From assembly GCA_963733375.1 (NCBI GenBank), contig CAVTDB010000008.1, positions 32,001-96,000 on the forward strand: a DNA stretch of 64,000 bases, written 5' to 3'. This stretch comes from Nitrospirota bacterium. Its GTDB lineage: Bacteria; Nitrospirota; JACRHJ01. How positions within the stretch are numbered: position 1 is the stretch's first letter; every line of letters begins with the position of its first letter. A program made the translations under genes and the position numbers. Shown here piece by piece: positions 1-4,026 of this stretch. The notes beneath the pieces are model-generated. The model made no database searches. It was not told where the DNA came from and worked only from the letters and a program-made list of their open reading frames with translations.

Positions 1-453
1 CTGATATACGCATTCATGAACCTTGGCGCGTTCGGCATGGTCGTGGCCCTCTCAAGGGGCGGGATGACCGGCGAACGCATCGAGGACTTCGCGGGCCTGG
101 CCAAAAAGAACCGCATGGCGGCGCTTTTGATGCTGATATTCATGTTCTCGCTGGCGGGCATCCCGCCGACCGCCGGGTTCATCGGCAAGTTCAATATCTT
201 CATGGCCGCCCTGAACTCCGGGTTCCTGTGGCTCGCGCTGATAATGGTGGCGATGAGCACGGTCTCGGCGTTCTTTTACCTGCGTGTCGTTATGGTGATG
301 TACATGAAGGAGCCTGAGGACGAGCGCAAGGTATCCCCGAACCTCTCCATGTACACGGCGATGGCCGTCGCCGCGTACGCCGTCCTGTATATCGGGATGA
401 ACCCTTACGGGGTCTTGAACTTCGCAGTCAAATCCGTGTCCGGGCTGATGTAG
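1..453 (+). CDS. nuoN: NADH-quinone oxidoreductase subunit N, 3' part (truncated by window start)
   Basis: Hydrophobic protein with FSLAGIPPTAGFIGKF and S.FFYLRVV motifs typical of the NuoN C-terminus. Confidence 0.9.
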   Translation: MIYAFMNLGAFGMVVALSRGGMTGERIEDFAGLAKKNRMAALLMLIFMFSLAGIPPTAGFIGKFNIFMAALNSGFLWLALIMVAMSTVSAFFYLRVVMVMYMKEPEDERKVSPNLSMYTAMAVAAYAVLYIGMNPYGVLNFAVKSVSGLM

Positions 454-554
454 GAAAACACGCCGCTCATTCCCCAGCCTTCTTTGTTCATAACCAATTT
501 AAACTAACGGTAAAAGGCATTAAAATCAAAGGGAATTCAGACTTTCCCCAAAAC

Positions 555-584
555 TTGACATAAGGGTCTCTACAGCGTTATAAT
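555..584 (+). promoter_or_regulatory. sigma70-type promoter
   Basis: TTGACA (555-560), 18-bp spacer, TATAAT (579-584); no credible ORF follows. Confidence 0.8.
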
Positions 585-625
585 TTAATTAGAGCAGATG
601 ATAGCTCGATTGATCTTTGATAAAA

Positions 626-819
626 ATTCTCTGCGGTGCAGGAATGGCGGCTTCTGCTTTTCTCTTGCAGGTTCATAAGAATGGGGGCCTCTGCACGGGG
701 TTGATTCGCCCGTCTCTTGCCTCCTTTCGGGGCGGGTGAAGAGCTACTGGCGGGGTCCCCATAATCAATGAATAATGCATCAGAAAAGGCTATTAGCCTA
801 AGCCTTTATCGCAGGGAAT
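626..819 (+). ncRNA. 6S-like rod-shaped RNA (194 nt)
   Basis: 12-bp closing helix 626-637/808-819 with nested helices 681-691/752-762 and 705-716/729-740; G-U pairs work only on the + strand; size and shape fit 6S RNA but the family was not verified. Confidence 0.55.
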
Positions 820-825
820 AAATAA

Positions 826-894
826 TTGGGGATAGGATCAGAGAAGGTCTATAAGGGAGGTGAATAAAGCCCTTCAAAAACATTCTATCCTCAA
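826..894 (+). ncRNA. hairpin domain carrying an SD-like AAGGGAGGTGA
   Basis: 13-bp helix TTGGGGATAGGAT (826-838)/ATTCTATCCTCAA (882-894) with G-U pairs on the + strand. Confidence 0.45.
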
Positions 895-902
895 GGATTA
901 AT

Positions 903-1062
903 AAAAAAGATACCGCGCTGGTTCACGCTAGTGAACGTTAAGTTACTCATCCGTAGGGCGCGTAACACCGCCTCAAAGCGTGGCAGGCCGAGCCTTTTAA
1001 GGCCTCAAAAATGACCTGTTGCTGACGGATTGGGAAAAAAGAACGTAGCGCGGTATTTTTTT
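903..1062 (+). ncRNA. structured RNA domain of unknown family ending in a U tract
   Basis: Closing helix AAAAAGATACCGCGCT/AGCGCGGTATTTTTTT; inner pairings ATCCGT/ACGGAT and GTGGCAGG/CCTGTTGC. Confidence 0.45.
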
Positions 1063-1110
1063 GTGTCGGCGCAGGCGGGGCAGAGAGGGGAGGTAGGGCG
1101 TTTGATTCTG

Positions 1111-1500
1111 TTATTTTTCGAGTAGTTCCCGGAGCCATGCGGGCGGCCTGACAGGTTTTCCCTGCCTGTCGACGAATGCATGTTGCGTCATCCCTTGGGC
1201 AAGCTTTTCGTTATCCCGCAGTATCTCGTATTCAAATCCCAGCCGAACTCCCTTGCATTCTGAAACCGCGGTCCTGATTGTGAGCAGGTCGTCATATCGC
1301 GCCGATTTCAGGTACTTGCATGACGCCTCGATCACCGGGAGGTAATATCCCTCGTCTTCCAGTTCTCTGTATGGCCTGCCGAGGGAGCGTATCAGCTCCG
1401 TCCTGCCGATTTCAAAATAAGTCAGGTAGTTGCCGTAATAGACAAAACCCATCTTGTCCGTCTCGGCGTAGGTTACACGGTGCGGGAAATCGAAGCTCAT
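1111..1500 (-). CDS. acyl-CoA thioesterase, YbgC/FadM hotdog family
   Basis: RVTYAETDKMGFVYYGNYLTYFEIGR motif; start taken at MSFDF. Confidence 0.88.
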   Translation of the reverse strand: MSFDFPHRVTYAETDKMGFVYYGNYLTYFEIGRTELIRSLGRPYRELEDEGYYLPVIEASCKYLKSARYDDLLTIRTAVSECKGVRLGFEYEILRDNEKLAQGMTQHAFVDRQGKPVRPPAWLRELLEK

Positions 1501-1612
1501 CCTACGCCCCTCCCCTGAACAGATTCCATCAGCCTGCGTACCTGGGCAAGCTTTACTACACGGCATCTTATAGTGCGTTGTCGGAAGGGGTATTGGCCAG
1601 CAGGACGCGCAT

Positions 1613-2502
1613 TTACTTGTAGCCCATTTCCCTTAAAGCGCCCGGCTTCTCGCGCCAGTCCTTCTTCACTTTTACCCAGAGTTCCAGGTATATCTCGGAG
1701 CCGAGCAGCCGCTCGATATCCTTCCTCGCCGCCTGGCCTATTTTTTTAAGCATCTGTCCGTTCGCGCCGATTATGATTCCCTTGTGCGAGTCCTTTTCGA
1801 CATATATATCCGCGCGTGTATATATTTTATCGCCATGCTCCTTCATCTCTTCCACGAGGACCGCCGTCGAATACGGCACCTCGTCCTTTGTCATCCGGAA
1901 TATCTTCTCCCGGATAATCTCGGCGGCGATAAACCTCTCCGGCTGCTCCGTCATCTCGTCTTCAGGATAATATTGCGGCCCTTCAGGGAGATAATCGATT
2001 ATGGTCTTCCTAAGGTCGGGCAGGTTTTTTCCTTTAAGCGACGAGACGGGGATTATTTCCGCAAAATCATATATGGAAGAATATTTATTTATGAGCGGAA
2101 GGAGCGCGTCCTTCTGCACCAGGTCTATCTTGTTTATCACGAGGAAGACCTTCGTCCTCAGGCCCTTCAGGAATTCGATTATCTCTTTCTCGGCCTCGCC
2201 CGGATTTTTATCCGCCTCCGCCATGAACAGCACGATATCGACTTCCGAGCACGCCTCTTTCGCCACCTTCACCATATACTCGTTCAGGCGGCCTTTCGGC
2301 TTGTGCAGGCCCGGCGTGTCCAGGAATATCACCTGCGCCTCTCGGGCAGGGTGAGGATGCCTGTCACGCGGTTCCGGGTGGTCTGGGGTTTATCGGATAC
2401 GATGGAAATCTTCTCCCCGACCAGCGCGTTTAAAAGGGTGGATTTCCCTACGTTCGGTCTCCCGATAATCGACACGAACCCGGAGTAAAATGCTTTTTTC
2501 AT
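1613..2502 (-). CDS. era: GTPase Era (one frameshift near 2345, probable sequence error)
   Basis: [23 protein letters not shown] and KH-domain SHKGIIIG motifs across two frames. Confidence 0.93.
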
Positions 2503-2515
2503 TTCCATCTGTTTT

Positions 2516-3116
2516 TTATTTCCATCTCTTGTATAAATTATTGTCTATTCCCAGCAGGTCCAGCGCCCGCCCGGCCAACTGGTCTATTATATCCTGAATC
2601 GTCTTTGGTTTGTTGTAAAATCCGGGCATGGCGGGGAGGATATGGACGCCCAGGCGGGCAAGTTTCAGCATGTTCTCCAGGTGTATCGCGGAAAGCGGCG
2701 TCTCGCGCGCCATTAACACCAGCGGGCGGCGCTCCTTCAGCATCACGTCCGCCGCGCGTTCGATCAAGTTATTCGCGTATCCGTTTGCGACTCCGGCAAG
2801 GGTCTTCATGGAGCACGGCGCGATTACCATCCCGGCCGTCCCGAAGGAGCCGCTCGCAATCGGCGCATACATGTCGTCTTCGGGATAGAAGCTGAGCAAA
2901 TCTCCCTTGAGCTTCAAGGCGTCCGCGATTATCTTCGCGGCGGCGTTTCCGCTCTCTGCCGGAGATATCCACGCCCGTCTCGTCTTTCATTATAGAGACG
3001 CCTTCGCGGCTGGCGGTGATTATCACTTCATGCCCCGCATCCGCAAGCCCGCGAATCACCGCAAGCCCGTACGCGCTCCCGGAAGCCCCGCTGACGGCAA
3101 CGATATATTTAGACAT
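2516..3116 (-). CDS. ubiX: flavin prenyltransferase UbiX (frameshifted)
   Basis: [13 protein letters not shown]-terminus; [26 protein letters not shown] and RETP motifs. Confidence 0.92.
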
Positions 3117-3125
3117 AAGATGGCA

Positions 3126-3164
3126 CCCTCACCCCCGACCCCTTCCCGTAAAGGGCGAGGGAGA
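3126..3164. repeat. short intergenic palindromic element (CCCTCACCC...GGGCGAGGG type)
   Basis: CCCTCACCCCCGACCCCTTCCCGTAAAGGGCGAGGGAGA between ubiA and ubiX; single copy in the window. Confidence 0.4.
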
Positions 3165-3171
3165 AAAAAAG

Positions 3172-4026
3172 TCACTTTATAAATACCGCGCCCGCCGTGA
3201 AGATGAATATCGTGACGCTGATGTAGCCGTTCATGTTGAAGAACGCCGCGTCCAGCTTCCTTAAATCCCCGCCACGGATAAGCATATGCTCATACACCAG
3301 CATACAAGACGCCGCGAACACTCCTATGAGATAAACGAAATTGAGCCCCAGAAGCCTGTATATCGCGAGAAGCCCGGCTATCGCCAGCGCGTGCAGGAGG
3401 CGCGAAACCCATAAGGACTTATTTATCCCAAGATAACGCGGGATGGAGTGCAGGCCCTCGTTTCTGTCAAACTCCAAATCCTGCAGGGCGTACAGGATGT
3501 CGAACCCGGCGACCCACGCAAGGACCGACAGCGCGAGGATAACGACCGGTAAATCAATCGTCCCCCGGATTGCGGCCCACGCGCCGACCGGGGCCAGGCC
3601 AAGCGCCAGGCCCAGGAAGAGGTGCGATGCCCAGGTGAAGCGTTTCGTGACGGAATAAAAAGTCAGGACGGCTATGACCACCGGCGAGAGTTTGAAACAT
3701 AAAGGGTTCAGCATATATGCCGCCAGTACCAGCAGGGCGTATGATGCCAGGCTGAATATCCCGACCTGCGCCTTTGTCAGAAGTCCGGCAGGTATCGCGC
3801 GCGTCTTCGTCCGCGGGTTCCTTGCGTCGATCTCCGCGTCCAGCAGGCGGTTCATCCCCATCGCGCCGGAGCGCGCGCCGACCATCGCGACCATTATCCA
3901 AAGTATCTGCCGCCACGTCGGAAGCCCGTCCGCCGCAAGTACCGCGCCCGTGAACGCGAACGGCAGCGCGAATATCGTGTGCGGGAACTTTATCATCTCC
4001 AGGATTATTTTAATGCGGTTGATCAT
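3172..4026 (-). CDS. ubiA: UbiA-family prenyltransferase (MqnP-like, futalosine menaquinone pathway)
   Basis: IKFPHTIFALPFA, NRLLDAEIDARNPRT and GFDILYALQD motifs. Confidence 0.9.
   Translation of the reverse strand: MINRIKIILEMIKFPHTIFALPFAFTGAVLAADGLPTWRQILWIMVAMVGARSGAMGMNRLLDAEIDARNPRTKTRAIPAGLLTKAQVGIFSLASYALLVLAAYMLNPLCFKLSPVVIAVLTFYSVTKRFTWASHLFLGLALGLAPVGAWAAIRGTIDLPVVILALSVLAWVAGFDILYALQDLEFDRNEGLHSIPRYLGINKSLWVSRLLHALAIAGLLAIYRLLGLNFVYLIGVFAASCMLVYEHMLIRGGDLRKLDAAFFNMNGYISVTIFIFTAGAVFIK

Follow-up and report, generated by a model that had tools for sequence, protein, structure and literature searches.

The locus and its fold

The stretch of DNA studied here, which we call the window, comprises 64,000 nucleotides (nt) from a Nitrospirota bacterium (contig CAVTDB010000008.1; genome G000 of our collection, 2.39 Mb, 81% complete), and all coordinates below are window positions. 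The 3′ end of nuoN occupies positions 1–453 on the + strand, with best NCBIfam matches that are all NuoN, and the opposite strand carries a gene for a YbgC-type thioesterase (1111–1566) and era (1613–2508). We found no credible open reading frame (ORF) in the interval 454–1110 between nuoN and the thioesterase gene. What lies there is a promoter followed by ~470 nt that fold into three domains (Table 1), and the ORF list of the window holds no same-strand gene 3′ of this element. Because it has a conserved promoter and a covarying fold, contains no conserved ORF, and is covered by RNA contigs confined to it, we conclude with high confidence that ~591–1062 on the + strand is a real gene and represents a new RNA family.

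Table 1. Features of the RNA locus. Changed pairs are those that differ on both sides among the homologues.
Feature	Position	Strand	Remarks
Sigma-70-type promoter	555–584	+	TTGACA 555–560, 18-nt spacer, TATAAT 579–584; 12/12 consensus matches
boxA-like element UUGAUCUUUGAUA	610–622	+	single-stranded, conserved; putative NusB/S10 loading site for antitermination
Domain 1, long rod	627–818	+	RNAalifold with RIBOSUM scoring; pair counts
H1	627–638/807–818	+	closes domain 1; 5/12 pairs changed
H2	683–689/754–760	+	domain 1
H3	694–699/744–749	+	domain 1
H4	705–716/729–740	+	domain 1; 5/12 pairs changed
Loop 1	717–728	+	UUGCCUCCUUUC; apex of domain 1
H5, small side hairpin	789–791/801–803	+	domain 1
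Domain 2	826–894	+	outer H6, inner H7, apical loop 2
H6	826–837/883–894	+	95.8% of cells paired; 3 pairs changed
H7	843–847/871–875	+	81% paired; 3/5 pairs changed
Apical loop 2	848–870	+	domain 2
SD-like sequence AAGGGAGGUGA	853–863	+	in loop 2; no start codon after it
Domain 3	906–1062	+	H8–H13, then U tract
H8	906–918/1048–1060	+	closing stem of domain 3, 13 bp
H9	921–926/931–936	+	domain 3
H10	937–939/1042–1044	+	domain 3
H11	946–954/1025–1034	+	domain 3
H12	956–962/968–973	+	domain 3; U-A to C-G in 5/14 members
H13, variable tip	980–989/1013–1022	+	domain 3; 5/10 pairs changed
U tract, U7	1056–1062	+	overlaps 3′ strand of H8, giving a terminator-like 3′ end

A first-pass annotation of the window had proposed a consensus promoter, the lack of a credible ORF, and three stem-closed domains (626–819, 826–894, and 903–1062) that work on the + strand and end in a U tract. 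All of these proposals were borne out by our analysis, for which we assembled 14 distinct homologous sequences, 8 from genomes and 6 from metagenome contigs. A −35/−10 pair (TTGAC[A/T], 16–18 nt, TATA[A/C]T) is present in 14/14 members, in several with a TG preceding the −10 hexamer, and transcription would start at ~591–592. Measured between the −10 hexamer and the U tract, the members are 342–555 nt long. No ORF of at least 20 amino acids with common start and stop columns was found across the 14 members, and no start codon lies at normal spacing past the GGAGG of the Shine-Dalgarno (SD)-like sequence in domain 2. A small-protein gene or leader peptide was rejected on these grounds.

The + strand of 590–1070 folds at −184.6 kcal/mol with a z-score of −6.88, compared with −2.87 for the − strand, and several conserved pairs alternate between U-A and U-G and are thus workable on the + strand only. 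RNAalifold predicted 68 pairs, 23 of them compensatory, from the 14-sequence alignment (A2), and with RIBOSUM scoring it predicted 102 pairs in 13 helices. In the 102-pair fold, 90.5% of cells were paired (94–98% in H1 and H4) and 35 pairs had changed on both sides; the covariation score was 0.227 versus 0.143 in shuffles, and 0 of 500 shuffles reached these values by any measure. In slid controls, 41–49% of cells were paired and 12–16 pairs had changed on both sides, a comparison that favors the structure, as it was derived from the same alignment. The center of domain 1 is largely paired in both the minimum free energy (MFE) and the consensus structure, with no large central bubble.

In domain 2, H7 pairs GAAGG (843–847) with CCUUC (871–875), so that the SD-like stretch stays in the loop; the helix is changed to GUAAGA/UCUUAC in member L028. 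The first-pass annotation had suggested a switch in which AAGGG of the SD-like sequence pairs instead with CCCUU (870–874). This pairing is possible in the window, but the helix that covaries is GAAGG/CCUUC. In domain 3, the H8 stem and the U tract are conserved in 13/13 complete members. The stem encloses ~130 nt, and a terminator scan made no call there because the enclosed “loop” exceeds 8 nt. A run of A residues (903–908) stands 5′ of H8 and the U run stands 3′ of it, so that the − strand likewise reads as a stem followed by a U-rich stretch, and H8 could also terminate the convergent thioesterase-era transcripts.

The boxA-like element, the complementary loops, and the domain 3 homologue

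Three features had been overlooked by the first-pass annotation: a boxA-like element in the leader, the identity of loop 1 with the real 16S rRNA 3′ end, and a link between domain 3 and an rRNA spacer. The boxA-like box occurs in 12/14 members, 22–48 nt past the −10 hexamer and outside all conserved helices, and is lacking from two forms of 342 nt. An excerpt of PMC13753749 gives the Bacillus subtilis boxA consensus, which binds NusB, as AUGAUCUUUGAAA and the Escherichia coli consensus as UGCUCUUUAACA, and reports boxA also before suhB and CRISPR operons; the window box equals the B. subtilis consensus quoted there at 11 of 13 positions. In the rRNA operon (rrn), boxA is described as necessary and sufficient for the antitermination complex in an excerpt of PMC10250234. 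Two boxes in the genome's own rrn are similar to it as well: the leader has GGUCUUUGAAAAC, and the internal transcribed spacer (ITS), ahead of 23S, has GUUCAUUGAAAAC. We consider it fairly probable that the window box is an rrn-type boxA that would load NusB and S10.

A hairpin 5′ of the box is not conserved across the members. A pairing of the box with the conserved UCAAGGA after domain 2 was considered and rejected, since by eye it showed no compensatory change and was broken in member L023. A single rRNA operon was found in the window genome (G000:C6, locus L041), reading 16S, tRNA-Ile, tRNA-Ala, 23S, and 5S. Three TTGACA-type promoter-like sites precede its 16S gene (L041 1030–1300), and boxA-like boxes are present in the leader and before 23S.

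Positions 711–729, which include loop 1, are invariant in 14/14 members, and in 8/8 genomes this invariance is independent of the loop query because these copies were found by BLAST or by the domain 3 model. Loop 1 is predicted to be unpaired in 14/14 members (p 0.72–0.99). Its positions 720–728 (CCUCCUUUC) are identical to the 16S 3′ tail: the genome's own 16S ends in ...GGAUCACCUCCUUUCU, and the loop segment corresponds to its last 9 bases but one. Loop 2 presents the counterpart. Most members carry GGAGGUGA here (856–863 in the window), exactly complementary to UCACCUCC of the 16S tail, and GGAGG is present in loop 2 of 13/14 members, L017 having GGAUG. Loop 2 is predicted to be mostly unpaired in the majority of members; the value for L029 was disregarded, as it refers to the wrong GGAGG.

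The two loops are complementary to each other, as pointed out in the first-pass annotation, which read this as a pseudoknotted or switchable RNA or as a loop made together with its own decoy. The predicted window duplex has 11 uninterrupted pairs, including 3 G-U, and a free energy of −14.4 kcal/mol; 6 of 1000 loop 2 shuffles were as good. Complementarity is kept in 13/14 members, with duplexes of −11.5 to −16.2 kcal/mol for which 6–73 of 1000 shuffles were as good. The organism's own 16S tail is the preferred partner of loop 2 by prediction, giving a stronger duplex than loop 1 does in 13/14 members. A covariation test of the loop-loop pairing is precluded by the invariance of loop 1.

For homology searches, we built three partial covariance models, covering the domain 1 apex, domain 2, and domain 3 (R1; 164 positions, 36 pairs), and used a phylum sample of 151 genomes. 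R1 scores the members at 98–172 bits, with 41.6 bits for the copy in G005, which is cut at a contig end. The sole R1 match outside the lineage was in G041, the single genome of its family in the collection, which belongs to another family and class (46.8 bits, E = 9e-10 per genome). This match lies on the rRNA strand between the 23S 3′ end and 5S, in a spacer of 286 nt (G041:C117, L040 1488–1773 on the − strand). The copy keeps all domain 3 helices with just two non-canonical pairs, and a boxA-like GUUCUUUGACA precedes it. In its inner variable hairpin, CUGCCUUGCCU and AGGUGGGGCAG are predicted to pair, much like the UUGCC/GGUGR part of the loop duplex brought into cis, although this is one case noticed post hoc. 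A scan of 401 phylum genomes with the domain 3 core pattern also returned G143, G218, and G272, which we discarded as chance matches because none has a model match at the site. The window genome's own short 23S-5S spacer contains no domain 3-like element, and no similarity beyond boxA was found between the RNA and its own rrn leader, ITS, or 23S-5S spacer.

Distribution, expression, and genomic neighbors

The element is confined to one class-level uncultured Nitrospirota lineage, whose class, order, and family all correspond to the same 12 genomes in the collection. A BLAST search against 40 relatives recovered the region from 7 of the family's 11 other genomes, together with two dubious short matches elsewhere in the phylum. 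Scanning genome contigs with an exact pattern of the invariant loop gave nine loci, of which seven are homologues, all in Nitrospirae/Nitrospirota metagenome-assembled genomes; the other two (L019 and L020) do not align, were judged to be chance matches, and were dropped before all counts. The same scan of metagenome contigs gave seven loci; every one is a homologue, and one duplicates a genome locus exactly. BLAST and the domain 3 model place the RNA in 8 of the class's 12 genomes.

Across the 151 phylum genomes, strong matches of the domain 1 apex and domain 2 models were confined to this lineage, and weak R2 and R3 matches outside it (E 8e-4 to 0.1 per genome) were unrelated hairpins where inspected. 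Two pattern matches in viral contigs fell in coding sequence without a domain 3 model match, and a viral origin was rejected. A genome self-search showed that the element is single-copy in the window genome, and a repeat or mobile element was rejected.

Comparison with Rfam, a check that the first-pass annotation had proposed, gave no family match. With all 4227 models of Rfam 15, positions 1–4000 yielded at E < 10 just chance matches to microRNA and long noncoding RNA models (E 0.5–10), and no match reached the gathering score in the whole window. In seven other members searched at E < 1, one chance match to a microRNA model fell outside the RNA. No tRNA or tmRNA was found in the window by ARAGORN. 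A divergent RNase P RNA or tmRNA was rejected, as the canonical genes are present elsewhere in the window genome (306 and 168 bits, respectively); in relatives, RNase P RNA was above the cut-off in 4/4 and tmRNA in 3/4. The excerpts returned by full-text literature searches contained no description of such an RNA, nor of an RNA with both SD interaction partners in exposed loops.

Part of the stretch is contained in 10 of the 23 RNA runs listed, three of which are tiny metatranscriptomes of ~32 million letters that hold 25–43% of the sampled words. RNA contigs were aligned to positions 300–1400 at a minimum likeness of 85. The contigs of X1, X3, X6, and X7 were confined to ~605–1079, with the exception of a depth-2 contig at 1316–1400 in X1/X3. 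Positions 300–595 and 1114–1298 had no RNA-contig cover, which gives a weak hint on the transcript boundaries. Over 633–817, the word depth summed per bin was ~490–2260 in X1/X3 and ~107–614 in X6; over 818–1039 it was ~22–42, and single places in the stretch reached ~2800. These depths sum over related organisms, and the tables of X1 and X3 are near-identical and may be one data set. X7, from another study, contributed one contig (605–841, depth 2.5). We take these data as good evidence for a high level of the element in RNA libraries.

The contigs had loose ends: adapter sequence precedes 645, 22 consecutive A residues follow 822, and adapter sequence again follows 1053. Contig depth was ~10–100-fold higher over domain 1 (633–822) than over domains 2 and 3 (818–1076), a weak hint that the RNA may be processed into an abundant domain 1 fragment.

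The gene upstream of the RNA varies: it is nuoN in 5/8 genomes, whereas G007 has a divergent gene there and G003 yet another. Because the upstream genes differ between genomes, the RNA is its own transcription unit and not an untranslated region. On the other side, era adjoins the RNA as a convergent neighbor in 4/8 genomes, and the genes found downstream in other genomes encode a radical SAM enzyme, an fn3 protein, and an SLT transglycosylase.

In the window, era is split into two ORFs, one encoding the N-terminal 59 amino acids (2329–2508) and the other the C-terminal 239 (1613–2332), whose frames meet at ~2330; the orthologue in G002 is one intact ORF of 298 amino acids (L003 2442–3338). 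The split is probably an assembly indel and possibly a pseudogene. An adjacent gene of the UbiX family (2516–3116, − strand) is apparently frameshifted as well: the ORF at 2516–2917 matches UbiX profile positions 59–181, and an overlapping ORF in another frame (2769–3116) starts, by eye, like the UbiX N terminus. This second frame break suggests indel errors in this contig.

Mode of action and comparison with known systems

We tentatively favor a mode of action in which SD/anti-SD pairing would let the RNA influence translation initiation or the ribosome. The full statement, a new noncoding RNA (ncRNA) together with this mode of action, we regard as a serious possibility that still falls short of probable. 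During transcription, the boxA would load NusB and S10 and thereby let RNA polymerase pass Rho-dependent termination, as in rRNA operons. The RNA would then exist in two forms. In the closed form, the anti-SD-like loop would kiss the SD-like loop; in the open form, the anti-SD-like loop would engage the SD regions of mRNAs and the SD-like loop the 16S tail of the 30S subunit, so that the RNA would buffer or sense SD/anti-SD pairing capacity.

A bolder version, which we consider unlikely, is a ribosome-mimicking regulatory RNA, transcribed like rRNA (promoter plus Nus/boxA), that displays a 16S-tail copy and a perfect SD on two neighboring domains. Its closed form would imitate the SD:anti-SD helix with its paired loops. 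In its open form, the SD loop would trap free 30S subunits by their anti-SD, and the 16S-tail copy would compete for mRNA SDs. With such an RNA, the cell could gauge or buffer its unused capacity for translation initiation, for instance while growing slowly in peat and sediment, and domain 3, which it has in common with the 23S-5S spacer of another class, would tie its processing or assembly to the ribosome-biogenesis machinery.

Several observations weigh against an action on translation or against the evidence assembled for it. The expression data are contigs rather than reads and cannot prove transcript ends, strand, or level. No query found the RNA in G008–G011, of which G008 is 96% complete in 10 contigs; with 4 of 12 class genomes lacking it, the RNA is dispensable, which argues against a core ribosomal role. 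Neighboring genes offer no functional lead, the gene for Era being adjacent in just 4/8 genomes. A loose boxA regular expression gives 121 matches in the genome, and the box is missing from the two shortest members; because the motif alone is statistically common, the case for boxA rests on its conserved position and lack of pairing. Six metagenome members were found by the loop pattern, so that their loop invariance is partly by construction. In L017, the GGAUG lowers the duplex to −7.1 kcal/mol, 431 of 1000 shuffles being as good, and the change is uncompensated. The loop complementarity could be a purely structural tertiary contact, and the invariance of 12 loop bases exceeds what pairing to GGAGG needs, which hints at a protein or other partner.

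The four genomes without the RNA belong to the same coded genus as the RNA-bearing G006. Their closest thioesterase is 34–35% identical in G008, G010, and G011 and is located in another operon, and G009 has none; this 35%-identical protein is a paralogue, and we rejected it as a synteny anchor. The absence looks like a lineage-specific loss or a split deeper than the genus code.

If the contact between the loops is architectural and the SD likeness a by-product, the element would be a structured RNA unrelated to translation, such as a protein scaffold, a ribozyme, or a ligand-binding RNA. We consider this rather unlikely, although it accounts for much: the ornate multi-domain fold, the invariant single-stranded CCCCCAUAA, AAUUG, and GGGAAAAAGGAAC, which are unrelated to SD, the loop complementarity kept in 13/14 members, the related G041 sequences that pair in cis in one hairpin, and the absence from 4/12 class genomes, which fits an accessory function. 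It leaves aside, however, that the match to the 16S tail spans 9 nt and thus goes beyond the CCUCC core, that the UGA of GGAGGUGA forms Watson-Crick pairs with the 16S tail but wobble-rich ones with loop 1, and that the predicted duplex with the 16S tail is the stronger one in 13/14 members. The boxA-like leader and the domain 3 homologue in an rRNA spacer likewise point to the ribosome.

These same ribosomal features could instead identify a pre-rRNA mimic derived from an rRNA operon, with an rrn-like promoter and boxA, a leader-trailer-like helix (H1) around a mini “16S” reduced to its 3′ tail, and a spacer module as domain 3, which would bind or titrate factors of rRNA maturation or assembly that recognize the 16S 3′ end or spacer structures, such as nucleases, Era-like GTPases, or ribosomal proteins. 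The 9-nt 16S tail does stand at the apex of a long helix that starts right past the boxA-like element, the G041 homologue in the 23S-5S spacer also follows a boxA-like sequence, and era is a convergent neighbor in 4/8 genomes; Era binds the 16S 3′ end. This origin is nevertheless quite unlikely in our judgment. The RNA has no similarity to its own rRNA operon beyond boxA, its own 23S-5S spacer has no domain 3-like element, and the rRNA-spacer instance is one among 401 phylum genomes by pattern and 151 by model. Moreover, UCUUG precedes CCUCC where 16S has GAUCA, so that the Era recognition sequence is not kept, and the adjacency to era is not conserved.

A base-pairing regulatory small RNA (sRNA), in which loop 1 pairs with ribosome-binding sites in a restricted group of target mRNAs, in the manner of the C-rich loops known from Gram-positive sRNAs, and the rest of the molecule stabilizes or presents the loop, is improbable. 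Its C/U-rich loop is exposed, invariant, and predicted to be unpaired in 14/14 members. The far higher RNA-library depth over domain 1 (633–817) than over domains 2 and 3, and the contig end at 822 with its A run, which is compatible with a loop-bearing fragment of ~180 nt, are a weak hint in the same direction. Yet a 9-nt copy of the anti-SD would fit nearly every SD of the genome and thus could not discriminate between targets, domains 2 and 3 match domain 1 in conservation, which a mere scaffold would not need, and the size and the boxA-like element would be unusual for such an RNA.

We hold a 6S-like polymerase-binding RNA or a CsrB-like protein sponge to be very improbable. The first-pass annotation had raised a 6S-like RNA, and its overall reading stands as far as the contig-covered ncRNA of ~470 nt with complementary loops is concerned, but not in this respect. 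Domain 1 is a rod of ~190 nt and the RNA is apparently abundant, which fits 6S, and loop 2 has A(N)GGA-like motifs, which fit a sponge. No 6S-type Rfam model matches the element (none at E < 10 in positions 1–4000 and none at gathering score), however, and canonical 6S is encoded elsewhere in 5/5 genomes searched (93–99 bits), including the RNA-less G008; in the window genome it is at G000:C9:128216–128394 (99.4 bits). Domain 1 is an almost fully paired rod without a central bubble, and the first-pass annotation had itself judged its center more paired than a typical 6S bubble. As for a CsrB/RsmZ-type sponge, no CsrA gene (PF02599) was found in 5/5 genomes, and there is one conserved exposed GGA loop.

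A non-functional locus, that is, a decaying remnant, a mis-assembly, or a small protein gene broken by assembly errors, is scarcely credible despite the apparent frameshifts nearby (era split at ~2330, intact in G002), as 14 independent assemblies keep the promoter, the compensated helices, and the invariant loops but share no reading frame, and RNA-library contigs cover the element at high depth.

If true, the preferred reading would define a new class of large bacterial ncRNA from a poorly known uncultured Nitrospirota lineage, would extend Nus/boxA antitermination to a stand-alone ncRNA outside the model phyla, and would make a mimic of the 16S tail and an mRNA SD a candidate regulator or sensor of translation-initiation capacity. 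The occurrence of the domain 3 module in an rRNA spacer offers a handle on the origin of such RNAs. Even if the mechanism is wrong, the 102-pair model, the three covariance models, and the 14 sequences can seed an Rfam family and serve to annotate genomes.

Among known systems, 6S RNA (RF00013) is similar in length and rod shape to domain 1, and the element is also apparently abundant, but it differs in matching no 6S model, in having no central bubble, and in coexisting with a genuine 6S gene. sRNAs that bind ribosome-binding sites through C- or C/U-rich loops, such as the hairpins of Staphylococcus aureus RNAIII and RsaE/RoxS, likewise expose a pyrimidine-rich apical loop complementary to SDs. 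Here, in contrast, the 9-nt copy of the 16S tail fits SDs generally, the RNA has in addition an SD-like loop of its own and another two conserved domains, and it has no sequence or Rfam relationship to these sRNAs. Riboswitches and RNA thermometers that sequester an SD also combine mutually pairable SD-like and anti-SD-like stretches in one RNA; in our case no gene or start codon follows the SD, the RNA ends at a putative terminator of its own, and the motifs lie in the apical loops of separate domains instead of in one helix. The large “ornate” bacterial ncRNAs without an assigned function (OLE, GOLLD, ROOL, HEARO, and raiA) are similar in being several hundred nt long, multi-domain, strongly covarying, and of narrow phylogenetic range, whereas the present RNA has no Rfam 15 match, combines a boxA-like leader with anti-SD/SD loops, and comes from another phylum. 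Finally, compared with rrn leaders bearing boxA, the element leads into an ncRNA body of 342–555 nt rather than rRNA and its box is absent from two members, but it shares with them a consensus promoter, a single-stranded box of the UGYUCUUUGAAA type within ~30 nt of it, a long helix that joins the sequences flanking the body, and a long untranslated transcript.

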